This document shows, piece after piece, positions 27,435-64,000 of a DNA stretch of 64,000 nucleotides; within the stretch, counting starts at the first letter, position 1; every line of letters begins with the position of its first letter. The DNA is taken from the NCBI GenBank assembly GCA_050014195.1, contig JBEKDT010000017.1, positions 1-64,000 on the forward strand. Reading direction: 5' to 3'. The notes under the pieces are model-generated. The model worked only from the letters and a program-made list of their open reading frames with translations, did not search any database and was not told the origin of the DNA. The position numbers and the translations under genes are program-made. The stretch comes from Desulfomonilia bacterium (GTDB taxonomy: Bacteria > Desulfobacterota > Desulfomonilia > UBA1062).

Positions 27435-27451
27435 ATAAGTGGATTGATCGA

Positions 27452-42357: not shown

Positions 42358-44166
42358 ATGACATTAACTATTAAATATAGCTCAGTAGTATTGTTTTTAG
42401 CTTTATTTTTTTCAACTGTCCAAGCAGCGAACCTCTATGTAGATCGTGGAGGCCATCAAGCTACTTGGGATGGCACGAATGGGCACACCTATACATGCTC
42501 TCAGGGGACAGGAAAAGGTTACTCCACAATCCATGCAGCGGTTACAGCTATGGCTAGTGGCGATGATGTTTATATCCGAGGAGGGACTTACAATGAAAAC
42601 GAAATATATCTCGGAAGTAGCGTTAGTGGGACATCGGGAAAATATTCTTCAATTCAGTCCTATCCAGGTGAATGGGCTATAATAGACGCTCAATACGCAG
42701 GTACGGGGAATAATCGTTCTGTGATTTGGTATGCTCAACCTGTATCTTATATCAAGTTTGAGCGTCTTGAGATTACAGGTGGTGGTGAGGCTGTACCTAC
42801 TACTACGAACTTATATGGGGCGGGGATCATGTTATATGGGGCCTCTCATATAACCATGCGCTATCTGTATATACATGACAATTATGCAATGACGAACGTA
42901 GGCGCATCAGCCGGCATTCACCTGGCAAACGGCGGCGGTAATGGCGGCGGTTCCAACATAATCATAGAGTATTGTTACTTGAAAGGTAATGGCAATCCTC
43001 TCCCGCCGGGAAATGCGAATGCCAATAGAAATACAGCTAATGCCCAGATTGCTATTTATTCTGACTATATATATGGTACAGCACCAGTAAACTTAACCAC
43101 TTGTACACATAATAATATAATCAGATATAATCTTCTGGACGGATCTGCTGCCACTGGGGGTAATGCCTTTATAGGCTTTATGCACAAGGCATCACAAAGG
43201 CTGACTGGGTGGACTTATGGAGAAACCGGGAACGCAGCAGACTATACCCCTAATGATACCACTGGTCGCCCATATGGGGACGACATCGAACACAATATAA
43301 TAATAAATTCCCCAGAGGGTATGCGGCTCCAGCAAGATTATGTCCAAGCACATCATAACATAATGGACCTTACCATTGGAACCGATCTCCCTGGTCCCGC
43401 AGTAGAAACCAGAGACTTTTCCTCCGATGCTAGAGGACTAGATCAGGGTGTGCTGTATAACAATACGATCCTAGCCGGTGGTCAATACGGTTTTTCTATC
43501 TTGGTTCCTGCCTATCACTGGGACTGCAATACCAATGGAACATCTGTTCTTTATGATTATACAACAGTCCTTAATAATATAATTGGCAACACGGCATCGA
43601 CTGCAGTTAATGGAGTAAACGCGCTAGTTCTCGGTTCTGGGGAATATAACAATAACTGCACTGGGACTCAGCCCATTACCCGTGCTTCAAATCCAAGTCC
43701 TGTATCATCGACGGCGTGGCGCCAGAATTTCAGCCGGAACCTCTTTTATAATTGCGCGAATCCGGCTTTTTCTATAGGACAAACATCCTATCCACCATCC
43801 CAGCTTGTATCTTTGGGTGTGGCGGATTATGTGTGGGCTTCAAGCTCTTCGCCTTTCGTCGGAAGTTCGAGAATGAACAAATACATAACCATGGGCAGCT
43901 ATGCCCTTGATGGGAGCCATACGATAGCCAATGGGGGTCTTGGCGGGAGTCATCCGTATCTTTCAGGCGTGACATTACCATCCTATGTGGGGGCCGTAAA
44001 TCCAAATGACAACTCATGGGTAGCGGGGGTACTTGGCCTCAATGCAACCTATTTTATAAGTGCCGTAGGTGGAAGCGTTCCGGCATGGATTGAGGGCGGT
44101 GGAGGTTCAGTACCATCAACTCCTCCAACAACACCAACAGGCCTCAGTATAAAAATTATCGAGTAA
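42358..44166 (+). CDS. Secreted right-handed parallel beta-helix protein (polysaccharide lyase-like) with Pro-rich C-terminal tail
   Basis: Signal peptide ending VQA; GDDVYIRGGTYNE, IQSYPGEWAIIDA and repeated NIIxYN/HN turns; tail GGGGSVPSTPPTTPTGLSIKIIE. Confidence 0.75.
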   Translation: MTLTIKYSSVVLFLALFFSTVQAANLYVDRGGHQATWDGTNGHTYTCSQGTGKGYSTIHAAVTAMASGDDVYIRGGTYNENEIYLGSSVSGTSGKYSSIQSYPGEWAIIDAQYAGTGNNRSVIWYAQPVSYIKFERLEITGGGEAVPTTTNLYGAGIMLYGASHITMRYLYIHDNYAMTNVGASAGIHLANGGGNGGGSNIIIEYCYLKGNGNPLPPGNANANRNTANAQIAIYSDYIYGTAPVNLTTCTHNNIIRYNLLDGSAATGGNAFIGFMHKASQRLTGWTYGETGNAADYTPNDTTGRPYGDDIEHNIIINSPEGMRLQQDYVQAHHNIMDLTIGTDLPGPAVETRDFSSDARGLDQGVLYNNTILAGGQYGFSILVPAYHWDCNTNGTSVLYDYTTVLNNIIGNTASTAVNGVNALVLGSGEYNNNCTGTQPITRASNPSPVSSTAWRQNFSRNLFYNCANPAFSIGQTSYPPSQLVSLGVADYVWASSSSPFVGSSRMNKYITMGSYALDGSHTIANGGLGGSHPYLSGVTLPSYVGAVNPNDNSWVAGVLGLNATYFISAVGGSVPAWIEGGGGSVPSTPPTTPTGLSIKIIE

Positions 44167-48529: not shown

Positions 48530-48654
48530 ATGTGACATTAAGCCGAATGATGGACTGGAAAGGGTCGTTAAGCGAATGAAATGATCAAGATTCAGAAATG
48601 GGAATTCGAAGTACAAAAGATTCTCGCTAATTGACCGGGAAAGTCGAAGAACCA

Positions 48655-50175
48655 ATGCGTGTTAAGAATTGGGAAATGAAAGAGCAATCAGATACCGTGG
48701 AGGTATCCGCAGATGTAGACGGCTTTCGCCTGTGGTTCCGATCACCAAAGTCCTATCCAGTTTCAAGAACAGGCGATCCCTTCCTGGCATCCGCGCTTCT
48801 TCCGGCGATGCGCCAAGGAGAGAAGCTTGAGTTTGACCCACGCCTGCCCGTTTCCCCGAAGTTACTGAGAAATGCTTTTGTGCTCCAGGAAATTTTCCAT
48901 TCCTGGAATCCTGAAGAATTGAGAATGATCCCCGTCAGCGCTAAGACATCACCTGCCGAGCCGCTTAATACTGGCGCCATGTCCTTCTTCTCGGGAGGCG
49001 TGGACAGCATGTACACTTTTCTGAAGCGTAAGAATGAGCTCAGCCATGTGGTTAATATATATGGATTCGATTTCTTCTTCAACAGCGGGGATGCCTCGAC
49101 ATTCTCGGTTGCTGACCTCAAAGACTTGGCGCATTTCGCATGGAAGCTGATGTTACCGGTTGGCCCGGTGTCTGCCTACTTAAAGGGCATGCTCTCGAAA
49201 ACAACGCTGCAAACTCTATCAAATTACGTAGATTCGGGCTCAGATCCAGGAGCAGTGGAAACAAGTCTGGTAGAGGATCTTAACAAGATCATCTCCGGGC
49301 AGTTGATCTACGACAGAAAGCGCTTTGCGGGTGTCAACTTGCGGCCGCAAACAAGACATTTTATGTCGCGGGACCTGAAGGGAGAGGACCTGAGCGGCCT
49401 GAACCGGCTTCTTCTGGAGGACGCTTATCCACGTGAAATATCGGGAAAGTATAATGGAGCCTACCAGACGGCCATCGAGCGCAACACCTGCTTCGTTCAA
49501 AGCTTTGGGAAGACCCTCGTCCCTGTCGAGAATAATCATTATGCTTTTGGATATCGCTACAATCTGAGTAGAAATTTAACACAGGGAAGTGCCTTGGCCA
49601 GTGTCGCGCTTCTCCTTGGGTTTCCTCAAGTCTATGTGCCATCTGCTTATACTTACAGGCAGCTATGTCCTTTGGGTTCGCACCCGCTGACGGATGGGCT
49701 ATGGTCGAATGAATGTGTAGAAATCATACACGATGGCTGCGAGGCGGGACGGACAGATAAGCTCAAGATGATATGCGAATGCGAATCAGCTCTTACGAAT
49801 TTAAGGGTCTGCTTCGATAATGTGAATATCAATTGTGGAAAGTGTGCAAAGTGTTTGCGCACAATGATGCCCCTAAAATTGCTTCGTGCCTCTGCCGCCC
49901 CTTTCCCAACTCTTCCTTCCCTCAAAGTAATTCGGAAAAGCCGTATCTCTGATGATATCGAAACGAGCTTCTTCAAGGAGACGGTCGACCTTGCTTTGCA
50001 GACAGGAGACCAAGAAATGCGGTATGCTTTATGCGCATGTATGAAAAGGAATGAACTATTAAAGCTCCTAATAGATCTCGATAAGGTGCTCCTGGGGGGA
50101 TTCATCAAGCGTGCATATCGAAGAATAGTGCCTGGTATAGGGATCCGTCGAATTGATACTACCCCGAGAGATTGA
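48655..50175 (+). CDS. PP-loop (adenine nucleotide alpha-hydrolase-like) protein of polysaccharide clusters, with an apparent inserted domain
   Basis: FFSGGVDS, GSHPLTD, RTDKL, LRVC and NCGKCAKCLRT; about 113 extra aa at 49102-49440. Confidence 0.7.
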   Translation: MRVKNWEMKEQSDTVEVSADVDGFRLWFRSPKSYPVSRTGDPFLASALLPAMRQGEKLEFDPRLPVSPKLLRNAFVLQEIFHSWNPEELRMIPVSAKTSPAEPLNTGAMSFFSGGVDSMYTFLKRKNELSHVVNIYGFDFFFNSGDASTFSVADLKDLAHFAWKLMLPVGPVSAYLKGMLSKTTLQTLSNYVDSGSDPGAVETSLVEDLNKIISGQLIYDRKRFAGVNLRPQTRHFMSRDLKGEDLSGLNRLLLEDAYPREISGKYNGAYQTAIERNTCFVQSFGKTLVPVENNHYAFGYRYNLSRNLTQGSALASVALLLGFPQVYVPSAYTYRQLCPLGSHPLTDGLWSNECVEIIHDGCEAGRTDKLKMICECESALTNLRVCFDNVNINCGKCAKCLRTMMPLKLLRASAAPFPTLPSLKVIRKSRISDDIETSFFKETVDLALQTGDQEMRYALCACMKRNELLKLLIDLDKVLLGGFIKRAYRRIVPGIGIRRIDTTPRD

Positions 50176-50447
50176 GCAGGATTTTCAGCTGGTATGTTGT
50201 TGGCTGCATGGCCTCTGCTTTGCAAAATTGCATGAATGAAGGGGGAGTCCTTCCTGTGATCAATTTGGACTTGATCGCTATGAGCCTACCACCACTTGAG
50301 GCCCTTGAACAATTCCCATTGTGGCAAAACTTGGTTAGGAGCTGATATTCGACAATAATGGCATTTAATCCAATGATATCATTGCATTAAAATTGATATA
50401 TTTTCTCTATCTTGAAATTCATGGGGAGTGCTGGAATGGGATATAAG

Positions 50448-50563
50448 GAAACTTTTGCACAGCTCACCGGTGATTAGACGCAGATTTGGAGCTGATAATC
50501 TGTGATAACAGCAATTATCCAATTGATATTATTAATGATAACTGGTAGTCTTACTTATCATTT
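50448..50563. mobile_element. Partial second copy of the 31388 MITE
   Basis: gaaacttttgcacagctcacc...ttagacgcagatttggagctga...ttgatattattaatgataactggta aligns by eye to 31388-31503. Confidence 0.7.
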
Positions 50564-50574
50564 AATCTCGTTTA

Positions 50575-50657
50575 GGGTTAATTCCCACGCTGCTTGCTGC
50601 GAAGGCATATTCTTTATAAAAAAATTTGAACCCTATAGCTTGCTGCAGGGTAGTTCA
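50575..50657. repeat. GCTTGCTGC-type REP-like doublet
   Basis: gggttaattcccacgctgcttgctgcg ... ccctatagcttgctgcagggtagttca. Confidence 0.6.
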
Positions 50658-50678
50658 AAATGAAACAATTGAGGACTT

Positions 50679-52433
50679 ATGAAAAAATTTACATTTAATC
50701 TGTTTCACGGGCAGAAGCCCTCCAATAATCAGGAATTTATAAAATGTTTCCCTACCTGGTGGTACTATACTGAAGGAATACCTGTAAAAGCAGGTGACTT
50801 AAATGGAAATGCTAAGTGGCTTCTGGCGGGTCGGCTCTTAAATGATCAGGATCCGAGTAAAATTATAGATTATTTTTATAGGCGACGTGATTACGAGTAT
50901 CTATATCAAATTGATGGCCAGTTCATTTTTATTCTGTATTTTGAGAATGATGGAAGCGTTGAGATATATCGCGACCGTATTGGTACATTCCCAATTGCAT
51001 ATGCACAAGGTCGAAATGGTATTGCCATATCTGTAGATATTAATGACGTAAAGGATATGACCGGTATAGTTCCTTCACCATCAACCGGTATCTTTGAACA
51101 ATGGCCATTATATCGCAAAACATTTGCACCGGTTTCACCATTTTATGAAATTCATACCCTTGCCCCGGAGCATTCTTTACGTATCACAGGCTCTTCTTTT
51201 AATGAGATCAGTCACCCCATGTGTTTCCCTACTGAAGAAGAATATCCTGATATGAATATATCGAGCCAGGTCTTAGGTGACGTACTTTCACGATCGATCC
51301 AGAAGAGAATTGAGATTTCAAAGAGAATGGGGGTCTTTCTCAGCGGGGGGAATGATTCCAGTTTGATTGTGGCAATTGTTAGAAAGTTCTATTTAAAAAA
51401 ACTGAGAACACTCTTTGTCACATTTGAAGATAACCCTAGGGATTATGGTCATCATGCCCAGGAGGTAGCCGACAGGTTCGGCACCGATCATTCTTCTGTC
51501 ACATTGAGCCCGAGAGACTATGTTGGAGTCTGGGCAGACACGATTAAAGTGCTGCAAACGCCTGTTCCTATGCCGTGTCATATAGGGATTCATCATGCCT
51601 TAAAAATGCTTTCAGGTGATGTTGATTTGATGATTGATGGCGATGGTGCTGATACGGTTTTTGGAAGCTCAATATGGCCAGAGATGATATTTTTATCACG
51701 TATTAATAGATTTATCCCAACATACCTGAAAGATGGTATCGGAAGATTGGCACATTCAATGTCTTGTAATACGACCATAGTGCGAATAGCGGAGATGATT
51801 AAGACGGCCCTTAATTCTTCTCTCTATGAATACCCCCATGTAAATGCAGCAATGATTTCTGAAAGTGAATTCAATCAGATCTTTCTAAGAGGTGACTGGC
51901 AACAGGCAGTTCATTTCAGACAAGGCTTCGCAAGGGGTGATTTCTATAAAGGATTGTTTTCTTATCTTATGTTGCATGGTATACCGGAAGATCTCGCCAC
52001 CACTGTCCGCTTGGGTTTGTCGCAGGGCATTTTCTTTGCGTATCCTTTCTTGGATTATGGTTTATTGCAGGCATCAATGCGATTGCCCAATAAACATCGG
52101 TATCATTACCGCATCCGTAAGGCGCCTTTGAAAAAATATTCTTTGAATTATTTCGACAAGGATTTCGTATATAAACCAAAGGAAGGTTTCGGTGTTCCTC
52201 TTGCTTCATGGTTCACGAAGAAAGAATTTGAGCCTTTCCTGATGCTGCCTCTCGAAGAGCGCAGCTTAAAACGTGGGTGGTGGAAGGAACTCGAGTTAAA
52301 GAGGATAATAGATTTGCACCGGAGGGGAGAGGGCAATGACAGTTCAGCAGAGGCTATACCATGGATTGTAATCAATTTGGAATTATGGGCTCGTATATGT
52401 ATCGATGGGGATTCTCCGAGTCAGTATAAATAA
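50679..52433 (+). CDS. Asparagine synthetase (AsnB)-like amide ligase with degenerate glutaminase domain
   Basis: LSGGNDSS, GDGADTVFG, YPFLD and KPKEGFGVPL; no N-terminal Cys. Confidence 0.85.
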   Translation: MKKFTFNLFHGQKPSNNQEFIKCFPTWWYYTEGIPVKAGDLNGNAKWLLAGRLLNDQDPSKIIDYFYRRRDYEYLYQIDGQFIFILYFENDGSVEIYRDRIGTFPIAYAQGRNGIAISVDINDVKDMTGIVPSPSTGIFEQWPLYRKTFAPVSPFYEIHTLAPEHSLRITGSSFNEISHPMCFPTEEEYPDMNISSQVLGDVLSRSIQKRIEISKRMGVFLSGGNDSSLIVAIVRKFYLKKLRTLFVTFEDNPRDYGHHAQEVADRFGTDHSSVTLSPRDYVGVWADTIKVLQTPVPMPCHIGIHHALKMLSGDVDLMIDGDGADTVFGSSIWPEMIFLSRINRFIPTYLKDGIGRLAHSMSCNTTIVRIAEMIKTALNSSLYEYPHVNAAMISESEFNQIFLRGDWQQAVHFRQGFARGDFYKGLFSYLMLHGIPEDLATTVRLGLSQGIFFAYPFLDYGLLQASMRLPNKHRYHYRIRKAPLKKYSLNYFDKDFVYKPKEGFGVPLASWFTKKEFEPFLMLPLEERSLKRGWWKELELKRIIDLHRRGEGNDSSAEAIPWIVINLELWARICIDGDSPSQYK

Positions 52434-52500
52434 AATATGGAAGATAATTATAAAAAATCTTAAGTAGATACAAGGACTGCTTCTAGAAAAGGTAGATAAA

Positions 52501-53637
52501 ATGAAGATTGGTATTATACGAACTTCGCATAAGGAAAATGAACGTCGTGTCCCGATATATCCGGAACACTTACCATGGATTGACCTTGAGTTGAGGAAAC
52601 ATCTTGTTTTCGAGAGTAATTATGGGCAGGATTATGGCTTTTCAGATGAATATTTTATTCGACATCAATCAAGTTTGTCTGACCGCCAGGGACTATTTAA
52701 GACATGTGATATGTTAATTCTACCGAAACCTATTCTTCAAGATTATGAACAGATGAAGGAATTTCAGACAATATGGGGATGGCATCATTGTGTCCAGGGT
52801 AGGAAAATTTCCCAGGCAGCAATTGATCGAAAATTGACTTTGATTGCCTGGGAGGCCATGCACCAATGGAGTAAAGGCGGAGAACGCCTTATGCACTCTT
52901 TTTATAAAAACAATGAAATAGCTGGTTACTCTGCTGTTCTACACGTCTTGGAGTTGCTGGGTGTTGATGGGCACTATGGACCGAGGAAAAATGTTATTAT
53001 TATTGGATACGGTTCAGTCAGTCGCGGAGCAATCTATGCTCTTCAGGGAAGAGGATACAATAATATTCATGTCTATACCCGACGCCCAGTACATTTAGTA
53101 GCAGATCAGAATCCCGATGTGTATTATCATCATCTAGAAGTTGCACCAAATGGTCAGATGTTTGGGGTCCATAATGATAGATCAAGACGTCCTTTCGTTG
53201 AAGAACTTGCTGAAGCAGATATTATCTGCAATGGTATTCTTCAGGATACAGATAATCCTCTGATATTTGTAGATGAAAAAAATATTGATCTTCTAAAACC
53301 TCGGTCTGTAATTATTGATATCAGTTGCGATGAGGGTATGGGCTTTTCTTTTGCACGTCCAACGACATTTAAAGACCCCATTTTTTCAGTAGGACAAAAT
53401 ATCACTTACTATTCCGTTGACCATATTCCATCTTATCTTTGGAATGCGGCCTCAAGGGAAATTTCAAGAGTTGTGCTATCTTTTCTGCCGATTTTAGCCG
53501 GGGGAATTCAATCCTGGTGTGAATGTGAGACTGTTAAAAAAGCCATTGAGATACGTAATGGCGTTATACAAAACCCCAAAATACTGTCATTTCAGAATCG
53601 ACAAGAGGAATATCCACACCTAGAAGTAATTACATAA
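52501..53637 (+). CDS. N5-(carboxyethyl)ornithine synthase-like protein (AlaDH/PNT family opine synthase)
   Basis: SHKENERRVPIYP, WGWHHCVQ, NNEIAGY, IGYGSVSRGA, DISCDEGMGF and VDHIPS. Confidence 0.8.
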   Translation: MKIGIIRTSHKENERRVPIYPEHLPWIDLELRKHLVFESNYGQDYGFSDEYFIRHQSSLSDRQGLFKTCDMLILPKPILQDYEQMKEFQTIWGWHHCVQGRKISQAAIDRKLTLIAWEAMHQWSKGGERLMHSFYKNNEIAGYSAVLHVLELLGVDGHYGPRKNVIIIGYGSVSRGAIYALQGRGYNNIHVYTRRPVHLVADQNPDVYYHHLEVAPNGQMFGVHNDRSRRPFVEELAEADIICNGILQDTDNPLIFVDEKNIDLLKPRSVIIDISCDEGMGFSFARPTTFKDPIFSVGQNITYYSVDHIPSYLWNAASREISRVVLSFLPILAGGIQSWCECETVKKAIEIRNGVIQNPKILSFQNRQEEYPHLEVIT

Positions 53638-53748
53638 TAATGTGTTAACATCCCCAATAATAACCATATTTGATGCTATTGGGTGTCTCGCTGAAGACCA
53701 TTCTTTTGCATCATACAAAATAGGGAATTAAGCAGTAGCCAAAGATAT

Positions 53749-55086
53749 ATGCATCCATTCATAGCCAAACATCTCATTTATTATCCAATCCAGCTCCTTA
53801 GGGGCCAGATAGTCAGAAGATATAAACACCGGGTTATCTCCTGCCAAATTGCACCTACCAAAGTGATTTATGAAATCCGTGATAAGAAGATATGTGACCT
53901 GATCAAGTATGCCTATAACTATATTCCCTACTATCGTGAAAAATTTGATGAGCGAGATATTAATCCAGACCGGATCAAAGGATTTAATGATCTGTCATGT
54001 CTTCCAATACTGTCTAAGCTTGATATTTTGACTAATGAACATAATCTCATTTCACACAATTGTAGCCAAAAACTGTATACCAGAAAAACCAGCGGATCGA
54101 CCGGAATGACCCTCCACTTTCAGAAAGAGGCCAGGGCACTGGCGCTCAATGATGCCGTCATGTACCGCTGCTATGCATGGTATGGTATCGATATCGGGGA
54201 TAAACAAGTTAGGTTCTGGGGGGTGCCGGTAGACCCCGCTCTGAGACGAAGGGAAAAGGTCAAAGACTTCATCCTAAACAGGATCAGGATCTCGGCTTTC
54301 GATATCTCCGAGCAATCCTGTCTGGCGCAGTACCAGAGAATAAAGCGGTTTAGGCCGGCATATTTTTACGGTTATACTACCGCCATCTACGGTTTCTGCT
54401 CCTTTGCACAGAAGCTCGGCCTTGACCTTAATACACTTGGTCTGAGGGCCGTCATCTGCACTGCTGAGAAGATGTACCCGCATCATCAGGATCTTTTCGA
54501 TAAGGTGTTCAAATGCCCTGTGGTTGATGAATACGGTTCCAGCGAGAACGGCATCATCGCCTTCCAGTGTAAAGAGGGGAGCATGCATGTGATGGCGGAT
54601 CATCTGGCCGTTGAATTTGTAGATGAAGCCGGGCAGAGGGTTAAACCCGGCGAGCTTGGAAGGATTGTTATAACGGATCTCAATGGATACGCCATGCCCC
54701 TTATACGGTATGAGATAGGCGATATGGGAAGGTATACGGAACAAGCATGTTCATGTGGAGTAACTTTGCCGGTGATGGACATCATTGAAGGGCGCAAAGA
54801 GGATTTCATCCGGACCCGGGAAGGAAAGCTCATCCATGCGGCCTACCTCTGTTATACCCTGAAGGATGACGCCGTCCATGAATTCAAAATGTATCAGAAG
54901 GATCTCAACAGGTTTCTTGTCCAGATAGTCAAATCGAATAAGTTTAATGCAGACTCCCAGAAGAAGCTCGAACATAAACTCAGGACAGCCCTGGGGGATA
55001 GCGTAGTTTTTGAGTTCCAGTTTCTGGAAAGGATTCCGAGAGAGGCATCAGGCAAGCTCAGATATTTCATCTCTGAAATCCGGTAA
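53749..55086 (+). CDS. Phenylacetate-CoA ligase family adenylate-forming protein (CapK-like)
   Basis: KTSGSTG, EYGSSENG, MPLIRYEIGD, GRKED and SGKLR. Confidence 0.88.
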   Translation: MHPFIAKHLIYYPIQLLRGQIVRRYKHRVISCQIAPTKVIYEIRDKKICDLIKYAYNYIPYYREKFDERDINPDRIKGFNDLSCLPILSKLDILTNEHNLISHNCSQKLYTRKTSGSTGMTLHFQKEARALALNDAVMYRCYAWYGIDIGDKQVRFWGVPVDPALRRREKVKDFILNRIRISAFDISEQSCLAQYQRIKRFRPAYFYGYTTAIYGFCSFAQKLGLDLNTLGLRAVICTAEKMYPHHQDLFDKVFKCPVVDEYGSSENGIIAFQCKEGSMHVMADHLAVEFVDEAGQRVKPGELGRIVITDLNGYAMPLIRYEIGDMGRYTEQACSCGVTLPVMDIIEGRKEDFIRTREGKLIHAAYLCYTLKDDAVHEFKMYQKDLNRFLVQIVKSNKFNADSQKKLEHKLRTALGDSVVFEFQFLERIPREASGKLRYFISEIR

Positions 55087-55202
55087 CGATTACAGAGAAT
55101 AATCCAGCAGGCAAAAGGCATAACCTGATAATCATATAAAAAGCTCAACAAGGCCATTGCGGATGACGTTCAAGAAGGAAAAAAGAGGAGCAGGGAACCG
55201 CG

Positions 55203-55472
55203 ATGGAATTGTATGCCGGATTGGATCTGCATTCACAGTACACCTACATTGGAGTGCTTGAGAAAGGGAGTATGAGGAAGGTGTTTCAGATGAGGGTATC
55301 GAATGAACTGCAGAGGATTATCTCTGCACTGGAGCCATTCAGAAATGAGCTCCAAGGTATTGCGATAGAGAGTACTTTCAATTGTTACTGGCTTGTGGAT
55401 GGGCTTATGGGTAGAGGGCAAAAGGGGAAAATCGGGCAGCAGATACAGCTCGAATTCATGGTGTTTGAATGA
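55203..55472 (+). mobile_element. IS110-family transposase N-terminal remnant
   Basis: LYAGLDLHS...IAIESTFNCYWLVDGLM, then similarity is lost. Confidence 0.8.
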
Positions 55473-55688
55473 AGAATGAACCTAAATCACCAGATCCGAT
55501 CCTGACCTGGAAATATGCAAAGGTCTCGTATGGAGTGTGGGAATACCACCGGAAAGAGCAGATAATGGAGGAAATAGGCAGTAAACTAAGCTTTATTTCT
55601 TGAGATTTTCATGAAAAAAGCACCAATCAGTTTCCTCCGATTCCTTTCTTGTCCTTGTGCAAAGGTCTCTGTATGGAGAACATCTCAA

Positions 55689-56783
55689 ATGGACAGTGAA
55701 ATTTATGATAGATATTCAATCGAAGTGGATAGCATAGGAGCAGAAGAATGGAACACTGTGCTCAGAGTATTCTCTGATGCGTCTATATTTCAAACATATG
55801 AGTATGGGGTCGAAAATTGGGGAAAGAACCATCTTAGTCATATAGTATTAAGAAAGGATAATGATATAGTGGCTGCTTCCCAAGTCTGGGTGGTAGAACT
55901 CCCGATTTTAAAATGTGGTTTTGCCCATATTCCGTGGGGCCCCATGTGGAAATGCAAAAATCGAGAAAGAGATGTACAGACTGTTAGAATGATGCTTAGA
56001 GCGCTAAGAGATGAGTATGTGGAAAAGAGAGGACTTCTGCTGAGGTTAAGGGGTTACTCGGTATCGGGTACGGATGAAGGCAATGAAGTTATTCAACAGT
56101 TGAGCGAAGAAGGATTTACGTTCCAAAAGAGGGAAGCCGCATATCGTACGTATCGAATTAATCTGACCAAGAGTTTGGAAGAACTGCGTACTAAGTTTAA
56201 AGGAAACTGGCGGAGAGATTTAATCAAGGCAGAGAGACAAGATCTAGAGATAGAAATAGGGAATAGTGTTTCCATGTTAGTGGTATTTTCAGAGATATAT
56301 AAAGATATGGTTAGGAGAAAAGGCTTTAAAGAGTATGTTGCAGACATGAACAAATACATCGAAATGCAGAGAAGGTATCGGGATGATTTGAAGATGAATA
56401 TCTTTTTATGTAAGCATGAGGGAACTTATGTAGCTGGCGCTGTTGTTCCGGCAATAGGTGATACGGGGATGTATTTATTAGGGGCAACGAGTACTATATG
56501 TTTTGAAAAGAAATTACTTGCTTCTCACCTGATCCAGTGGCGAGTTCTCAGTTGCTTGAAATCAAATGGATTCCGATACTATGACTTACGTGGAGGGATC
56601 GATGGTGACATGGAGGGAGTTAGGCATTTCAAAAGCGGTCTTTCTGGGGAGGAGATTCACTACATAGGTTCGTATGAGTGTTCTCATAGAGTGTTAAGTG
56701 AGGTTGCCGTACGTACTGGTGAACATATTCAAAGAATGAAAGCCGGTCTACAAAATTTTGTGTGGAAGTTAGCAAGTAAATAA
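55689..56783 (+). CDS. FemAB/GNAT family peptidyl/acyltransferase
   Basis: SIFQTYEYG, GPMW, WRRDLIKAER, YDLRGG and GVRHFKSG; start at ATG 55689 after GGAG. Confidence 0.82.
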   Translation: MDSEIYDRYSIEVDSIGAEEWNTVLRVFSDASIFQTYEYGVENWGKNHLSHIVLRKDNDIVAASQVWVVELPILKCGFAHIPWGPMWKCKNRERDVQTVRMMLRALRDEYVEKRGLLLRLRGYSVSGTDEGNEVIQQLSEEGFTFQKREAAYRTYRINLTKSLEELRTKFKGNWRRDLIKAERQDLEIEIGNSVSMLVVFSEIYKDMVRRKGFKEYVADMNKYIEMQRRYRDDLKMNIFLCKHEGTYVAGAVVPAIGDTGMYLLGATSTICFEKKLLASHLIQWRVLSCLKSNGFRYYDLRGGIDGDMEGVRHFKSGLSGEEIHYIGSYECSHRVLSEVAVRTGEHIQRMKAGLQNFVWKLASK

Positions 56784-56874
56784 GCAGATCTTTGAAGTCA
56801 ATAGCTCTGATAGTGGCCTGGCAATGTCGCTTTCCTGGAAATAATCGTACTATTCGAGAGGATAAGTTAAACCT

Positions 56875-58578
56875 ATGAAAGGGCGTATTACATTCGGTTA
56901 CCCCGATGATACGAAAGATGTTATTGTTCGCCTTCAGGGAGAGATATGGTCGATCCAAGGACAGTCAACTCAGGGCATGGATATTCTTGAGCGGATTAAA
57001 ATTGAATACTTGAATAAAGGAGTTGCTCTATTTGAAAAATTAGATGGATCATTTTCTCTTGTCATCGAAGATCATCAAAAAATGAAACTCTTTCTTGTAC
57101 GAGACAAGCTCGGCACTATTCCTCTGTATCACGCAAAAAAAAGATGTACATTTACCTGGGGCAATCTCATAAGTGATATCCTTTCTGACCTGGAAATTGA
57201 AACGTCAGCCAATCATGATGTAATTCATGAATACTTAGTGTTTCGTTATGTTAGCGGGAGGAATACTCTTTTTCAAGGAATTCATGAGCTTTTACCGGCA
57301 CATTATCTAGAGGTTGACCTTAGAAAAGGAGAAGTAGAGGAAAAGCAGTATTGGGATATTCCTTATCCCTGTAAATCTGAAATGATTAAAGATAATGATG
57401 AAACCTGTGTCGATAAAATAGAAGAGATTCTAATACGTATTCTCAAAAGAACTTTAAGTAAGAATTGTCGCTATGGAATCATGTTGAGCGGTGGGCTTGA
57501 TTCAAGCCTGATAGCAGCTCTTGCGTCAAAACATGTTAATCATGGTTTCCCAACATTCTTTATAGGATTTACAGATTATGAGAGTGATCGCTCTCATGAT
57601 GCCCAAATGGTAGCAGAAACATATCATATGATCCATTCAAATTTCTATGTTAACTCAAAACAGTATGCTGAAGGTCTTATAGAAGCAATCAGAACCAACG
57701 AGGAACCACTTAACCATCCCGGTCATGTAGGAAGGGTTCTTTTCGATTCTCATACAAAAGATAAAGTTGATGCTCTCCTTATGGGAGAAGGAGTCGATAC
57801 AATGTTTTGTGGGGCAAAGGCTTACCCACTTCTTAAATATGGTTATATGTTCAATCCATTCAGGAAATTAACTAGGAGAATATTTTCATTGATAGACCCA
57901 GAAATAATTCCCGACTCACATAAGCGGTACTACACAAAGATAAGAGATGCATTTGTCATGAATGCTGATGAGTATATGATCCGAACTTTTGCAGCGGCAG
58001 AATTTCAAGAGGCAAGTGATCTATTGGAGCTTGAGGCTGATATGAGCTATCTTAACTATTATAAAAGCTTTATATCTGAATGTACGAGAGAAAATGTTCT
58101 TGAGAAATACCTTATGCTCAATCAGCACACATTTATAGTTGAAGTACTGAATTCTGATGCAAAGTATAGAGAATTAAACCAAATAATTAATTATTATCCA
58201 TTCCTGGATGTCGAATTACTATCGTTTTCAAATCACATTCCATTTAAAATACGGACCAAGGGGTTCACGGGAAAATATCTCATCAAGAAACTCGCTGAGA
58301 GATATTTTTCCAAGCATTTCATATATCAGCAAAAAGAGGGCTTTGGTGTGCCTTTGAAGACCTACTTCCAGGATCCAGAGAGTATGGGGAGATATTTTGA
58401 CCTCCTTTTGGAGAAGAGGACAATGGAAAGAGGAATTTTTAAAAGGAGAGAACTCTCTAATTTTGTTGAAGGATTTCGGAAAGGCGAAATGCCTTCTGAG
58501 AGTTATGAGTCTTTGCTCTGGACTGCAATTAACCTTGAGTTATGGTACAGGATTTTTATCGATAGGAATGGTGTATGA
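56875..58578 (+). CDS. Second AsnB-like amide ligase lacking the glutaminase N-terminus
   Basis: RDKLGTIPLY, LSGGLDSS, GEGVDTMF, YPFLD and KEGFGVPL; an in-frame stop at 56863-56865 rules out an upstream Cys start. Confidence 0.85.
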   Translation: MKGRITFGYPDDTKDVIVRLQGEIWSIQGQSTQGMDILERIKIEYLNKGVALFEKLDGSFSLVIEDHQKMKLFLVRDKLGTIPLYHAKKRCTFTWGNLISDILSDLEIETSANHDVIHEYLVFRYVSGRNTLFQGIHELLPAHYLEVDLRKGEVEEKQYWDIPYPCKSEMIKDNDETCVDKIEEILIRILKRTLSKNCRYGIMLSGGLDSSLIAALASKHVNHGFPTFFIGFTDYESDRSHDAQMVAETYHMIHSNFYVNSKQYAEGLIEAIRTNEEPLNHPGHVGRVLFDSHTKDKVDALLMGEGVDTMFCGAKAYPLLKYGYMFNPFRKLTRRIFSLIDPEIIPDSHKRYYTKIRDAFVMNADEYMIRTFAAAEFQEASDLLELEADMSYLNYYKSFISECTRENVLEKYLMLNQHTFIVEVLNSDAKYRELNQIINYYPFLDVELLSFSNHIPFKIRTKGFTGKYLIKKLAERYFSKHFIYQQKEGFGVPLKTYFQDPESMGRYFDLLLEKRTMERGIFKRRELSNFVEGFRKGEMPSESYESLLWTAINLELWYRIFIDRNGV

Positions 58579-58598: not shown

Positions 58599-59750
58599 AT
58601 GTACACGAATCCTCAGAAATTGGGAATTATTAAACCACTCAGTCACATGAATGAACTTTTCAAAATCGAGGATATGTGGAGAAATATATATGAAACGGTA
58701 TCTCCTAATTCAATTTTTATTTCTTTTGACTATATTATGCTGTGGTATAATTGCTTTGCTAGGCCCGAGCAGGTGAGGGTCTATCCAGCATATGAAGGTG
58801 ATAAAATTATAGGTTATCTTCCATTAATATTAAATAAAAAAGGGCCATTTCGGTTTCTGTCAAGCCTTACCAATCTACATTGCTTTCACCCTGCTGCACT
58901 AATTGCTGAAGGTTATGAAGAGACATTTTCTAACAGTTGCTTGCACGCAATATTTTCAGATAAATGCGGCTGGGATGTTTTTCAATACCGTAGCGGCTAC
59001 TCCTTCCAATATGGTCTAAGTTTGAGCATACTAAGTCCATTAGCCTATCACTTCAAAGAAATCAAACTACCAACATATTCTATGCTTATACCAGGTTCTT
59101 TTGAAGAATATTTCAATAAGCATCTATCCCCTCAAATGCGTAAAAATGCAAAAAGCTCAAAAAAAAGGCTACAAACAGTTCCCTCATATAGATTTTGCCA
59201 CTATACAGGAGATGATGCTGTTGCATCATGGCCTACGTTTCTATCGATTGAAGATTCTGGGTGGAAGGGAGTAAAAGGTTCATCATTAAAGAAGCTTCCT
59301 CAGAACTATCATTCATATTATGTAGGCCTCATCGATATGTTATCTAAAAATAACCAGTTACACATGTATTTTCTCGAAATCAATGGCCACCCTGTTGCGG
59401 GTACATTCTGTTATGTGGATCAAGATGTGTTTCACGCTTGGAAGGCCGGATACGTAGAAGAATTTTCCTCGCTCTCTCCCTCAACCCTGCTCTTACTTTA
59501 TATCATAGAAGATCTCAATACTAATTTTCCAATGGTGAAACGTCTGCACATGTTTCCTGGTGATTTTGGCTATAAACACCGTTATGTTAACGAAGAATCT
59601 TTTTATTCTGAAGTCGTCTTGTACGATAGAACAATTCTCGGAAGTTCCGCACATATTCTTTCCCCGATAAAACAAAGAGTTGAGCTACTTCCAGGTATGT
59701 CTGCTGCCATTGGGTTTATTAGAAAGCATTTTTTTAGAGATGATGATTAA
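58599..59750 (+). CDS. GNAT family protein, CelD/BcsL type
   Basis: IEDSGWKG, KAGYVEEFSSLSPS and GDFGYK. Confidence 0.82.
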   Translation: MYTNPQKLGIIKPLSHMNELFKIEDMWRNIYETVSPNSIFISFDYIMLWYNCFARPEQVRVYPAYEGDKIIGYLPLILNKKGPFRFLSSLTNLHCFHPAALIAEGYEETFSNSCLHAIFSDKCGWDVFQYRSGYSFQYGLSLSILSPLAYHFKEIKLPTYSMLIPGSFEEYFNKHLSPQMRKNAKSSKKRLQTVPSYRFCHYTGDDAVASWPTFLSIEDSGWKGVKGSSLKKLPQNYHSYYVGLIDMLSKNNQLHMYFLEINGHPVAGTFCYVDQDVFHAWKAGYVEEFSSLSPSTLLLLYIIEDLNTNFPMVKRLHMFPGDFGYKHRYVNEESFYSEVVLYDRTILGSSAHILSPIKQRVELLPGMSAAIGFIRKHFFRDDD

Positions 59751-60205: not shown

Positions 60206-60838
60206 ATGAAAAAAACTTTCATGACAATCGCAGCACTTTTTATTGTGCTCGGATTCACAGCATCAGTAGGAGCAACTACAATTCAAATTGTCGGCAGCTA
60301 TTCGACTCTGGATTCGCTGACCTTCACTCTTCTTGGCCACACCTACCACGACCAGTTGGTGGGTGAGTTTAATCTCCTTATCGATAGCAAGCCGGAAACA
60401 GGATATTGTGTTGACTTGGGTCATCTTTTATATGTTCCCAGCGGACCCTTTAATGTAAACCTTACTAGCGATCTGACCGATGAGGGCGATGTCCCCAACG
60501 GGTATGAAGCAGCATGGTTGTGGAACTATGTGGGTGATGCTCTAGATAAGGACCATAGAGCAGCGTTGCAGTTGGCAATATGGGATGTTGTGTTTGGGCC
60601 GGTTACCGGTATCTCCGAGCCGGCAGTCGCCGCAGAATACAATGCTTACTTAGCAGATCTTGCATTATATAGCTCATTTAATGGTGCAGGGTATGCTATT
60701 GCTGAACTAGGTGACCTACGCACACCATACCAGGATCTGCTGGTAAAAACCCCCGCCCCCGTTCCTGAGCCCATGACACTGTTGCTTCTCGGGTCAGGTC
60801 TTCTCGGACTGGCAGGATTCAGAAGGAAGATGAAATAG
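60206..60838 (+). CDS. PEP-CTERM sorting-domain protein with predicted Cys-Gln thioester domain
   Basis: Signal peptide; YCVD, LQLAIW and YQDLL; C-terminus VPEPMTLLLLGSGLLGLAGFRRKMK. Confidence 0.92.
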   Translation: MKKTFMTIAALFIVLGFTASVGATTIQIVGSYSTLDSLTFTLLGHTYHDQLVGEFNLLIDSKPETGYCVDLGHLLYVPSGPFNVNLTSDLTDEGDVPNGYEAAWLWNYVGDALDKDHRAALQLAIWDVVFGPVTGISEPAVAAEYNAYLADLALYSSFNGAGYAIAELGDLRTPYQDLLVKTPAPVPEPMTLLLLGSGLLGLAGFRRKMK

Positions 60839-60865
60839 TAATACAACATATTGACTGGGTTTCAG

Positions 60866-60900
60866 AGGCAGGGCCATTGAAAGGCCCTGCCTTTTTATTT
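60866..60900 (+). terminator. Rho-independent terminator
   Basis: aggcagggcc / ggccctgcct stem followed by ttttattt. Confidence 0.85.
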
Positions 60901-61396: not shown

Positions 61397-62026
61397 TTAC
61401 TTTTTATATCGCTTCAACAATATGTTTACACTATATTTATTCAAGAAATATACCTTTACTAAAAGTAAGATAGGTTTAGCTCCAAGTTTTTGCTTGAACC
61501 TCATTGCGGATATATTGAAGTATTCGGTTATACTATAGATCTTATAACAACCCATTCCATGGAGATGTTTATAAAACTGAAGTCTAAGATATGGTGCTAT
61601 GCCCCTACCTCGGTACTCCTCTACTGTAAGAGCATTGGACAGATATGCTTCATCATGGTCCAACAGAAAAGGATAAAGGTTTGAATCACACTCCCGTGTA
61701 TTACACCACATATGTGCGATAATACGAGTCCCGCACATAAGGCCAAGGCATAACCACCCTCTTTCCAACCTCTCCAGCAGTATCTCCTCTGTCTCCTTTA
61801 CACCGGGTGTCTCTGATACCTGTTTCATATCTAAAGATCCCAGTAAGAGCAGATTAAATTCATCTGCATTCATCTTAATGCTGATGGCAGAGTGTGTAAG
61901 TGATCCGAGTCCTTCCTCCATCACATAAAAAGGCACTATACGGACCAATGACTTGGATATGTCATAGAGAGATTGTAGTAAAGAATGCTTATTAATAAAT
62001 TCTTTTGTTCTGAATAAAGGGTTCAT
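61397..62026 (-). CDS. GNAT family N-acyltransferase
   Basis: EAYLSNALTVEEYRGRGIAPYLR and NISAMRFKQKLG; start at ATG 62026. Confidence 0.85.
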   Translation of the reverse strand: MNPLFRTKEFINKHSLLQSLYDISKSLVRIVPFYVMEEGLGSLTHSAISIKMNADEFNLLLLGSLDMKQVSETPGVKETEEILLERLERGWLCLGLMCGTRIIAHMWCNTRECDSNLYPFLLDHDEAYLSNALTVEEYRGRGIAPYLRLQFYKHLHGMGCYKIYSITEYFNISAMRFKQKLGAKPILLLVKVYFLNKYSVNILLKRYKK

Positions 62027-62030
62027 AATT

Positions 62031-62864
62031 CTATATCTGAAGGATCTCCCTTGCCTCATGCGGTGAATAAGGGCTGAAGCCCATTGCCTTTGCAATGGTC
62101 ACCACTCGTTTTACCAACGAATAATTCGTAGCAAGCTTACTCCTATCGCTATCGAACCATATATTATCTTCCAACCCCACTCTCACACCACCTCCTGATA
62201 TGATGGAGATTACATTCATCTTGAGCTGGGAATTTCCTATCCCACCTACAGACCAGACAGAATGTTCAGGTAATTCCCTTACCATAAGGCCGAGATGAAG
62301 TATATCTGCTTGAGCACAGGCAATGTTTCCCAGGATCAGGTTAAAATAATATGGAGGTTCAATAAGGTCTTTATTTATTAGGTACTTTGCATAATTAATC
62401 ATGCCAAGGTCAAAGGCTTCAAGTTCTGGCTTAATCCTCTCTTTCATCATCTTCGCCGCAAGGGCTTGAATCATGTCCGGAGTGCTGATGCTTGCCTGCT
62501 TATTAAAATTTAGTGAGCTTAAGGTGAGGCTGGCAAAATCCGGCTTTAGCTCACCTTTAAGATCGAGGCAGTCTGATCTTTGTTCAAATGCATTAAAATC
62601 TCTTCCGCTTGTTGAAACCCCTAAAATCAGATCCTTATTTCTCTGCCGTATCCCATGGATAATTTCTCCATAAATCTCTTTTTTATAAGTTACTCTGCCT
62701 GTTTCGGGGTCCCTTGCATGAAGATGCACCATGCTTGCACCGAGAGTAGCAATATCAAGTACCTCTTGGACGATATCACCTGGGGTTAAAGCAATATGTG
62801 GTGTCATTTCTTTGGTAGGGATCATGCCTGTTGGGGTGAAATTTAATATAAACTTATTTGACAT
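62031..62864 (-). CDS. Beta-keto acid cleavage enzyme (BKACE/DUF849, Kce-like)
   Basis: PTGMIPTKEMTPHI, HLHARD, SLTLSSLNF, PELEAFDLGM and RVGLEDNI. Confidence 0.9.
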   Translation of the reverse strand: MSNKFILNFTPTGMIPTKEMTPHIALTPGDIVQEVLDIATLGASMVHLHARDPETGRVTYKKEIYGEIIHGIRQRNKDLILGVSTSGRDFNAFEQRSDCLDLKGELKPDFASLTLSSLNFNKQASISTPDMIQALAAKMMKERIKPELEAFDLGMINYAKYLINKDLIEPPYYFNLILGNIACAQADILHLGLMVRELPEHSVWSVGGIGNSQLKMNVISIISGGGVRVGLEDNIWFDSDRSKLATNYSLVKRVVTIAKAMGFSPYSPHEAREILQI

Positions 62865-63115: not shown

Positions 63116-64000
63116 TTATCCCCTTCCGATGCCGAAATAGGTAAACCCGTGTGAATGCATCTCAGGTGGATTGAGTATGTTTCTCCCGTCAAAGATTACA
63201 GGGCGCTTCAAGAGATCTTTCATGCGCTTGATGTCCGGGCTCTTGAACATGTTCCATTCGGTGATAATGGCCAGGGCATCGGACCCTTCAATGGCTGCGT
63301 AATGGTCATGCGCATATGTGATCCTCTCACCGAGAATCCGTCGTGCATTCTCTTTTCCCTCGGGATCGAAGGCCTTTACTGTTATGCCCTGAGACAAGAG
63401 CGCTTCGATAATATCAAGAGCAGGTGATTCACGCACATCATCGGTCTTGGGCTTGAAGGTGAGGCCCCAGATTGCGATTGTGATCTTGTTGAGATCCTCA
63501 CCATGGAAGAAGTTGATTATCTTCTGGGCAAAGTAGCGCTTCTGCCGCTGGTTTGCACGCCAAGTCGCCTCACAGATCTCTAGGGTATGATCATTGCTCT
63601 TTGCAGTTGCAATAAGGGCCTGAACATCTTTAGGGAAACATGAACCTCCAAACCCAGGCCCGGCAAGGAGGAAACGTGGGCCAATACGATCATCCGTGCC
63701 CATACCCTCCCTTACGAGGTCGATATTCGCACCGAGCTTATCACAGAGGATGGCAAGCTCGTTGATAAAGGATACCTTGGTAGCCAGGAAGCAGTTGGAT
63801 GCGTACTTGGTGAGTTCCGCGCTTCTGATGTCCATTACGATAATGGGATTGTTCGTCGTCTTGATGAAAGGGCTATAGAGCTCCTTGAGGATCTCGGCAG
63901 TGCGGACGTTGTCTGTGCCGATGATCACCCGGTCAGGCCGCATGAAGTCCTGGATGGCATTGCCTTCCTTGAGAAATTCCGGGTTGGACACCATGTCGAA
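63116..64000 (-). CDS. ugd: UDP-glucose/GDP-mannose 6-dehydrogenase, 5' end beyond the window
   Basis: SNPEFLKEG, AELTKYASN, GFGGSCFPKD, FKPKTDDVRESP and FDGRN. Confidence 0.93.
   Translation of the reverse strand, partial: FDMVSNPEFLKEGNAIQDFMRPDRVIIGTDNVRTAEILKELYSPFIKTTNNPIIVMDIRSAELTKYASNCFLATKVSFINELAILCDKLGANIDLVREGMGTDDRIGPRFLLAGPGFGGSCFPKDVQALIATAKSNDHTLEICEATWRANQRQKRYFAQKIINFFHGEDLNKITIAIWGLTFKPKTDDVRESPALDIIEALLSQGITVKAFDPEGKENARRILGERITYAHDHYAAIEGSDALAIITEWNMFKSPDIKRMKDLLKRPVIFDGRNILNPPEMHSHGFTYFGIGRG

Follow-up and report, generated by a model that had tools for sequence, protein, structure and literature searches.

The 64,000-nucleotide stretch of DNA analyzed in this study, positions 1 to 64,000 of the forward strand of contig JBEKDT010000017.1 from a Desulfomonilia bacterium (NCBI GenBank assembly GCA_050014195.1) and hereafter called the window, carries from about 17 kb to 61 kb an exosortase (XrtA/PEP-CTERM-type) exopolysaccharide (EPS) cluster. 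Towards the distal end of this cluster, three genes on the plus strand encode a QueC-like PP-loop protein of 514 amino acids (aa) with an FFSGGVDS motif (48631-50175), an AsnB-like protein of 584 aa, here termed AsnB1 (50679-52433), and, after a spacing of 67 nucleotides (nt), a 378-aa reductase of the alanine dehydrogenase (AlaDH)/PNT family (52501-53637; PF05222 and PF01262) that resembles N5-(carboxyethyl)ornithine synthase (CEOS). We show that a clade of such CEOS-like reductases is physically coupled, and non-randomly so, to amide ligases in polysaccharide loci. Based on sequence comparisons, we see about an even chance that the QueC-like protein, AsnB1 and the reductase (48631-53637) form a decoration cassette of the EPS cluster, which would make an opine and attach it to the glycan by an amide bond.

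In the proposed pathway, the reductase would act as an N-carboxyalkyl amino acid (opine) synthase that condenses an amino acid, through an amino group, with a 2-oxo acid, pyruvate being the likeliest, probably at the expense of NADPH. AsnB1, the proposed amide ligase, would then adenylate a carboxylate, most likely the C6 group of a uronic acid within the polymer's repeat unit, for attack by the opine through its free amino group to give the amide; alternatively, the amino acid might be ligated first and carboxyalkylated afterwards. The QueC-like enzyme, the probable third member of the cassette, would perform a second ATP-dependent step on a carboxylate, and AsnB1 would fill the place given to an ATP-grasp enzyme in other genomes. 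The type of reaction, the substrates, the acceptor and the order of the steps are what we infer; pyruvate together with ornithine or lysine, named as substrates in the initial annotation of this DNA, are unproven and rest on analogy with an enzyme only 25% identical.

The coupling became apparent in a neighbourhood census of 80 genome loci kept out of 458 relatives of the reductase found, with reductases 51-68% identical. An AsnB/dehydrogenase pair conserved across the whole dehydrogenase family was rejected, as tblastn at an E value of 1e-8 placed an AsnB gene within 10 kb of the reductase in only two of the 80 loci, and a wider ligase pattern was therefore looked for. For this, neighbours were labelled by clustering, by Pfam annotation and then by hidden Markov model (HMM) labelling of open reading frames (ORFs). 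Thereby, a gene for an ATP-dependent carboxylate-amine ligase was found at most 400 nt from the reductase in 19 of the 80 loci, with TupA-like ATP-grasp proteins (PF14305) in nine and RimK/LysX-like ATP-grasp, QueC-like and AsnB-like proteins in four each; several of these loci carry two ligases flanking the reductase. Searches with tblastn add QueC-like neighbours in the loci L008, L011 and L079, which brings the ligase-adjacent loci to 22 of 80; those in L011 and L079 are known from tblastn alone, the ORF calls having taken an overlapping wrong frame. The proposed co-occurrence of AsnB and dehydrogenase thus failed as a general pair and held more broadly, as an association of one reductase clade with amide ligases.

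In a phylogenetic tree of the reductases, nearly all ligase-adjacent members fall into one clade. Clade A (20 rows including the window, with a support of 93 in the Shimodaira-Hasegawa-like approximate likelihood ratio test, SH-aLRT) contains 18 of them, or 19 with L008, and clade B (54 rows, mostly Bacteroidota by record title) contains one. Clade A comprises, by record title, Sedimentisphaerales, Verrucomicrobia, Latescibacterota, Ignavibacteriota, Acidobacteriota/Aminicenantes, Syntrophobacteraceae, 'Eubacteriales', Betaproteobacteria and Bacteroidales, a spread from which it appears that the pairing was built repeatedly with non-homologous ligases. Pfam domains around the pair comprise Wzy_C, the Polysacc_synt_3 flippase, glycosyltransferase (GT) families GT1 and GT2, and DegT, and tblastn matches to the GTs, flippase, epimerase, deacetylase, Ugd or exosortase of the window occur in 15 loci, all of them within L003-L025 or being L061, and in no other census locus. 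Since 22 of 80 loci have a ligase beside the reductase, nearly all of them in one clade and in polysaccharide loci, the general idea of an amine-donor synthase that works with an amide ligase in EPS decoration is supported; its extension to the second AsnB-like protein of the window, AsnB2, is not, as that protein is not tied to the reductase.

The initial annotation had described the reductase as similar to CEOS and had considered that it might instead be an ordinary alanine dehydrogenase. The latter identity is ruled out by a score of 61.3 bits on the AlaDH model TIGR00518, which has a cut-off of 391.85, and by a separate, genuine AlaDH encoded elsewhere in the same genome (paralogue L002, 532.2 bits on the same model). 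The reductase belongs to a large and well conserved family, with relatives 58-89% identical, which automatic annotation calls 'alanine dehydrogenase' in some sources and 'N5-(carboxyethyl)ornithine synthase' in others. Neither for the reductase nor for the lactococcal protein itself did NCBIfam yield a CEOS model. The tree was computed by maximum likelihood (LG+G4, quick search) from 74 family rows, four lactococcal-type CEOS, four AlaDH and one PntA as root, and leaves out family members outside BLAST cluster 0 or shorter than 340 aa, including those of L011, L018, L020 and L079. It joins the reductase family with lactococcal CEOS to the exclusion of AlaDH (SH-aLRT 99), a grouping to be treated with care in view of the quick search and the long branches.

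Several alignment features point in the same direction. A YKN..AGY motif and a GxGxVxxGA dinucleotide motif are common to the reductase family and CEOS but absent from AlaDH; both groups also lack a 12-residue loop that AlaDH has, and show RR or RK at the position where AlaDH has the NAD-type Asp. An Asp at this position is typical of NAD-specific Rossmann folds. R16, K76, H96, D273 and D277 are invariant in the alignment of the family and align with corresponding residues of AlaDH and CEOS; the aligned Arg, Lys, His and Asp are presumably the catalytic residues of AlaDH. The structural model (predicted local distance difference test, pLDDT, 85) is closest to AlaDH structures, with template modelling (TM) scores of 0.75-0.8, and no CEOS structure turned up in the fold search. 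By tree and shared features, and with the care already mentioned, the reductase thus appears to group with CEOS rather than with AlaDH. The gene lies directly after that of AsnB1, as the initial annotation had stated, and the identity of its product to lactococcal CEOS is only about 25%. Lactococcus lactis CEOS (EC 1.5.1.24) has the same AlaDH/PNT fold family, the motifs and loop deletion described above and the basic, NADP-discriminating residues. The enzymes of the window family differ from it in being about 65 residues longer, owing to an internal insertion and a C-terminal extension, and the lactococcal gene lies on plasmids with no ligase or polysaccharide genes nearby.

The proposed ligase AsnB1 and the second protein of this kind, AsnB2 (567 aa; 56875-58578, +), were said to keep the SGGxDSS synthetase motif and to lack the N-terminal catalytic Cys, and this was borne out for both. 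AsnB1, in which PF00733 is the only Pfam match (residues 200-572, E 1.2e-44), begins with MKKFTF and has an SGGNDSS PP-loop at residues 222-228, and AsnB2 (PF00733 over residues 182-559, E 3.7e-44) begins with MKGRITF, has SGGLDSS at residues 205-211 and lacks a stretch of about 55 residues within its glutaminase domain. A truncated pseudogene or a mis-called start was excluded, since both ORFs are maximal, each taken from the earliest start codon that follows an in-frame stop, no ORF initiated by MCG lies in the 503-nt gap preceding AsnB1, and the loss of Cys2 is family-wide. Cys2 is absent from all 13 aligned proteins of the AsnB1 family, in which S222, G223, G224, D226, S227 and S228 as well as K501, E502 and G503 are invariant, and SGGxDSS, KPKEGFGVP and many other positions are kept. 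About 49 protein clusters make up this family at an identity of at least 39%, all of them of about 583 aa and with PF00733 and at most a weak remnant of the glutaminase domain, and a large gap (E 1e-105 to 1e-35) sets it off from ordinary AsnB. AsnB2 has only about eight close relatives. All eight rows with complete N-termini (the window and seven relatives) lack both the MCG start and the block of about 55 residues, the row P0247, which begins later, being left aside here. S205, G206, G207, D209 and S210 together with K487, G489 and F490 are invariant in the alignment. Of three ordinary AsnB rows in this alignment, two begin with MCG, and the block is present. As Cys2 is missing across the relatives of both proteins, its loss is a family trait and not an accident of one genome, and the alignments confirm AsnB1 and AsnB2 as predicted glutaminase-dead forms that are conserved and keep the adenylation motifs.

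Both proteins remain below the cut-offs of the models that might have named them. On TIGR01536 (AsnB, cut-off 267.1 bits), AsnB1 reaches 119.7 and AsnB2 191.8 bits, both matches starting at model position 109 of 517. The exosortase-associated amidotransferase TIGR03108 (XrtA/PEP-CTERM) and AsnB proper share with the window proteins the Asn_synthase domain and the setting in an exosortase EPS locus, and differ in the scores and in having Cys2. Judged by such profiles, the system is neither AsnB proper nor this amidotransferase, neither AlaDH nor a lasso cyclase, each of which fails a defining test.

A different function that these properties would allow is that the Cys-less proteins are ammonia-dependent amidotransferases making uronamides, with the dehydrogenase unrelated or merely supportive. 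With an inactive glutaminase site, a synthetase domain of the AsnB type can still work with free ammonia, as in E. coli AsnB, the PP-loop and KEGFG motifs are intact, and AsnB2 has no conserved link to the dehydrogenase. We nevertheless consider this distinctly unlikely, since AsnB1-family genes adjoin the dehydrogenase in all three loci with context, since three further ligase folds occur paired with this dehydrogenase clade, a pattern that would be difficult to account for if the partners were not functionally coupled, and since TIGR03108 is far from matched (108.6 bits for AsnB1 and 179.2 for AsnB2 against a cut-off of 816.9).

Structure comparisons raised another candidate function, namely that AsnB1 cyclises the product of the dehydrogenase or another small molecule to a lactam, so that a soluble metabolite and not a decorated EPS would result. 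The AlphaFold model of AsnB1 (pLDDT 87.8) has the two-domain AsnB fold, and Foldseek matched it to carbapenam synthetase (CarA; E 2.7e-19) and beta-lactam synthetase (BLS; E 8.3e-19) with TM scores of 0.55-0.71 at 13-16% identity; CarA was also matched by the AsnB1 sequence (E 1.8e-8). Both synthetases lack the Cys nucleophile, the substrate of BLS is a carboxyethyl amino acid, and both act intramolecularly on small molecules in antibiotic pathways. The fold is, however, not discriminating, because the hydroxyamidotransferase TsnB9, CarA, BLS, human ASNS and AsnB all match about equally. In many loci the pair lies on the same strand between GT, flippase and Wzy genes, and the interchangeable ligase partners include ATP-grasp enzymes, whose characterised relatives, as far as is known, join two separate molecules. 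We thus regard cyclisation as very unlikely. BLS, CarA and TsnB9 are the nearest solved structures to AsnB1 and AsnB2, the best PDB sequence match of AsnB2 being TsnB9 (7ylz), whose chain residue 70 pairs with query residue 3. They resemble the window proteins in the two-domain fold, in carboxylate adenylation by a PP-loop and in forming an amide without glutamine-derived ammonia; AsnB1 and AsnB2 differ from them in lying in an EPS cluster and in forming small families of their own.

Returning to the reading as an opine-amide cassette, the link between AsnB1 and the reductase was found wherever DNA context was available for the AsnB1 family: the reductase directly adjoins such a gene in the window, in L017 and in L086. 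In L017, from an Acidobacteriota metagenome-assembled genome (MAG), an AsnB1-like gene lies on each side of the reductase, and GT and epimerase genes are syntenic with the window; on the metagenome contig L086, the AsnB1-like gene ends at 5204 and the reductase starts at 5268. The AsnB1 family is rare: searches at E 1e-70 through 400 further genomes from the phylum of the window and 400 from that of L017 gave no match. A metagenome scan with peptide patterns from the AsnB1 alignment, which proved too general, returned ordinary AsnB at 20-27% identity in 79 of 80 loci and a family member only in L086.

The QueC-like gene had been absent from the initial annotation. It lies just outside the span considered there, and elsewhere it is a more frequent neighbour of the reductase than AsnB-like genes are. 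The protein has no Pfam, NCBIfam or PDB sequence match. Homologues (tblastn, 44-66% identity) lie within about 600 nt of the reductase in eight other loci, L007, L008, L009, L011, L012, L014, L061 and L079. In L007, L009, L012 and L061 and, at a distance of 3 kb, in L017, a QueC-like gene and a second ligase accompany the reductase, so that the gene about 500 nt upstream of AsnB1 in the window probably belongs to the module as well. The QueC-like neighbours (e.g. L009:8733-9893, L012:6580-7737 and L061:8629-9786) come in a long form of about 507-533 aa and a short form of about 385 aa, which lacks roughly residues 150-275 of the window protein. In the Acidobacteriota MAG locus L008 (11222-12717 and 14261-15319), the QueC-like gene beside the reductase was matched in several pieces in different frames, with a second partial copy nearby, as if it were frameshifted or mis-assembled.

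A characterised counterpart of the proposed amide ligation is known from the Campylobacter jejuni HS:2 capsule, where, according to the available part of PMC11800379, the TupA-like ATP-grasp domain at the C-terminus of Cj1438 forms an ATP-dependent amide at the C6 carboxylate of glucuronic acid (GlcA). Proteins of this type (PF14305) are the commonest neighbours of the reductase clade. The window has no TupA-like gene, and AsnB1 and the QueC-like protein hold that place. The Campylobacter glucuronamide pathway is alike in its logic, with an amine-donor synthase and an ATP-dependent amidoligase in a capsule locus, and the window differs in the donor enzyme and in the fold of the ligase: as far as the available part of PMC11800379 goes, the donors of the amine are compounds other than opines, and a CEOS-like gene is not mentioned. 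On one Syntrophobacteraceae contig (JBEKMB010000025.1; L009 and L010), two CEOS-like copies about 16 kb apart are each followed by a TupA-like ATP-grasp gene, and one of them also has a short (386 aa) QueC-like gene upstream. A PDB sequence search with a TupA-like neighbour gave no match.

The end product that the cassette would make also has a precedent. That uronic acid amides of carboxyethyl-lysine occur in O-antigens, as claimed earlier, is in print: the available part of PMC10609480 reports uronic acids that bear amino acids in amide linkage, N-epsilon-(1-carboxyethyl)lysine among them, and describes N-epsilon-[(S)-1-carboxyethyl]-L-lysine amide-linked to galacturonic acid in Providencia rustigianii O14. 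For such Providencia and Proteus polymers the structure is known. In the literature searched, part of which was judged by title and the start of the abstract, no paper tied a CEOS-like enzyme to polysaccharide decoration, enzymes for opine-type substituents on polysaccharides were not found, and no genes were assigned to the carboxyethyl-lysine uronamides of Providencia and Proteus; the main text of a survey of the gene clusters for Proteus O-antigens (PMC5560731) does not contain the words carboxyethyl, lysine or ornithine.

A number of observations weigh against the cassette as proposed. Gene neighbourhood is not biochemistry, and only 80 of the 458 relatives were examined. The name CEOS on relatives of the reductase is an automatic annotation, and the identity to the lactococcal plasmid enzyme, about 25%, is no higher than that to AlaDH. 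Clade B is nearly without ligase or polysaccharide context, so that the reductase family as a whole is not tied to polysaccharides. Three 'AsnB-like' neighbours in Dechloromonas/Azonexus are very divergent, without Cys2 and without a canonical SGGxDS, and were therefore given little weight. To our knowledge, the solved Cys-less enzymes of the AsnB superfamily among the nearest structures, beta-lactam and carbapenam synthetase, all form an intramolecular amide. Finally, the sugar nucleotide pathway gives little help. The ugd gene for UDP-glucose 6-dehydrogenase (63116-64000, -; TIGR03026, 295.6 bits with a cut-off of 189.8), which the initial annotation had counted to the locus, is indeed present in the window; it is partial, being cut by the window end, lies on the opposite strand, and follows a terminator-like hairpin (60864-60894) and two minus-strand genes, so that 'in the locus' was generous. 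A gene for a nucleoside diphosphate (NDP)-sugar dehydrogenase occurs within 30 kb on the same contig in only two of five clade-A genomes examined, which makes the link of ugd to the AsnB1-reductase pair a weak one.

The uronic acid as acceptor, also suggested earlier, is accordingly weakly supported, and an amino-sugar acceptor stays possible because a gene for a DegT-type aminotransferase (27185-28615, +) lies in the same cluster. The cassette might then run in reverse: the ligase would adenylate the opine, or else an ordinary amino acid, at a carboxylate and N-acylate an amino sugar of the repeat unit, comparable to alanopine on 4-amino-4,6-dideoxyglucose (Qui4N) in Providencia alcalifaciens O35. 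DegT also lies near the pair in L012, and the loose linkage of ugd fits this reversal. RimK/LysX-type ATP-grasp enzymes, by contrast, couple a carboxylate that is already in place to the amino group of the amino acid being added, and the ATP-grasp proteins among the neighbours bear family names of this type. Moreover, a ligase-adjacent locus on an E. coli plasmid has a nucleotide-sugar dehydrogenase and an epimerase and no aminotransferase listed. From the literature, N-(1-carboxyethyl)alanyl on Qui4N is listed in the available part of PMC10609480, and the characterised TupA-like enzyme activates the carboxylate of the sugar and not that of the amine donor, as given in the available part of PMC11800379. 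Taken together, we hold the reversed cassette to be fairly unlikely.

The E. coli plasmid locus (NZ_AP027746.1, 162112-181212; L083) is the single ligase-adjacent row of clade B. Here a RimK-like ATP-grasp gene overlaps the CEOS-like gene inside a capsule-type wza-wzb-wzc locus, which also holds a flippase, GTs, the NAD-dependent epimerase and the nucleotide-sugar dehydrogenase. The ATP-grasp/CEOS-like pair was found in two of 5426 complete E. coli genomes, both times on plasmids, and the locus suggests a composite mobile unit because it is bracketed by two identical IS91-family transposase genes (WP_000948429.1). In the Phycisphaerae MAG locus L077 (179-1573), another member of clade B, the CEOS-like gene is immediately preceded by a saccharopine dehydrogenase-family gene (PF16653/PF03435) and followed by a peptidyl-arginine deiminase-type gene, a context that hints at free amino-acid or polyamine metabolism for clade B.

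Tentatively, and with the balance of probability against so broad a claim, the CEOS-like clade could represent a mobile 'opine-amide' module for surface polysaccharides, assembled independently with at least four unrelated ligase folds (TupA-like, RimK-like, QueC-like and Cys-less AsnB) in at least eight phylum-level groups by record title and on E. coli plasmids. On this view, AsnB1 would be the first enzyme of the AsnB superfamily that ligates a free amino-acid derivative to a glycan, and the module could provide the missing genes for the Proteus and Providencia carboxyethyl-lysine uronamides. Amide-linked amino acids on uronic acids alter the charge, the antigenicity and the recognition by phages and antibodies of bacterial surface polymers, and the enzymes for them are known in very few cases. 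Capsule, O-antigen and EPS loci would be easier to interpret with a gene pair that predicts such a decoration from sequence, and the assignment, if true, would add intermolecular ligation of a new kind to the AsnB superfamily.

Downstream of the reductase, the same-strand run continues with a PaaK/F390-synthetase-like adenylating ligase (53749-55086, +; PF00501), whose NCBIfam matches are far under the cut-offs (best 126 bits, with 300 needed), a FemAB-family protein (55611-56783, +; PF02388, E 9.7e-15), AsnB2, an Acetyltransf_6 GNAT protein that is FemAB-like (58599-59750, +; PF13480, E 1.2e-20) and, as the last gene of the run, a protein with a PEP-CTERM sorting signal (60206-60838, +; PF07589 and TIGR02595). 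The block of AsnB2, PaaK-like, FemAB-like and GNAT genes does not travel with the AsnB1-reductase pair in other loci, and the earlier view that both AsnB-like proteins serve the opine is not supported for AsnB2. A probable role for AsnB2, the PaaK-like ligase and the two FemAB-fold proteins is the addition of other amide-linked groups. That the block modifies a peptide or protein, such as the PEP-CTERM proteins or a lasso-type peptide, and not a polysaccharide, could be read from the FemAB-fold proteins and the PEP-CTERM protein gene in the same run and from matches to the lasso-peptide cyclase model NF033535; the latter are weak, with 26.2 and 97.5 bits for the two AsnB-like proteins against a cut-off of 525. 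No precursor peptide gene came to notice, although no search aimed at one was made, and pairing with polysaccharide assembly genes recurs in loci without an exosortase match by tblastn. We consider a peptide or protein target extremely unlikely.

The proximal part of the EPS cluster starts with a minus-strand sigma-54 response regulator and histidine kinase and a TPR protein, followed by a FemAB/Acetyltransf_6 protein, the DegT aminotransferase, a GT2 protein, the exosortase EpsH (29860-30726, +; PF09721, E 1.4e-57), which is the marker of an XrtA/PEP-CTERM-type EPS locus, and DUF3485/EpsI. After EpsI come acetyltransferases, five GT4 genes, a Polysacc_synt_3 flippase, an Acyl_transf_3 protein, a Wzy_C protein, a polysaccharide deacetylase and a UDP-N-acetylglucosamine (UDP-GlcNAc) 2-epimerase, and then the distal run beginning with the QueC-like gene. 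The hairpin 3' of the PEP-CTERM protein gene (plus strand) has 12 pairs, eight of them GC, and precedes a T run; as a single site it is only suggestive, because shuffled sequences contain at least as many sites of this kind as the region does. A promoter scan was at chance level (38 sites, 36.1 in shuffles).

Some further features of the window were noted. The ORFs of the FemAB/Acetyltransf_6 protein (26346-27434, +) and of the DegT protein overlap by 250 nt as called; since, in addition, the DegT domain begins only at residue 126, the true DegT start is probably further downstream. A 602-aa protein amid the EPS genes (42358-44166, +) has a signal-peptide-like N-terminus and Gly/Asn-rich repeats and no Pfam match at E 1e-5, and may be a polysaccharide lyase or depolymerase of the beta-helix type. 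A gene for a beta-keto acid cleavage enzyme (BKACE; 62031-62864, -; PF05853, E 6.9e-79) lies between the EPS operon and ugd and overlaps a GNAT gene (61397-62095, -) by about 65 nt. The best NCBIfam match of the BKACE is 3-keto-5-aminohexanoate cleavage enzyme, at 233 bits with a cut-off of 382, and its closest named relative is a lysine-fermentation enzyme.

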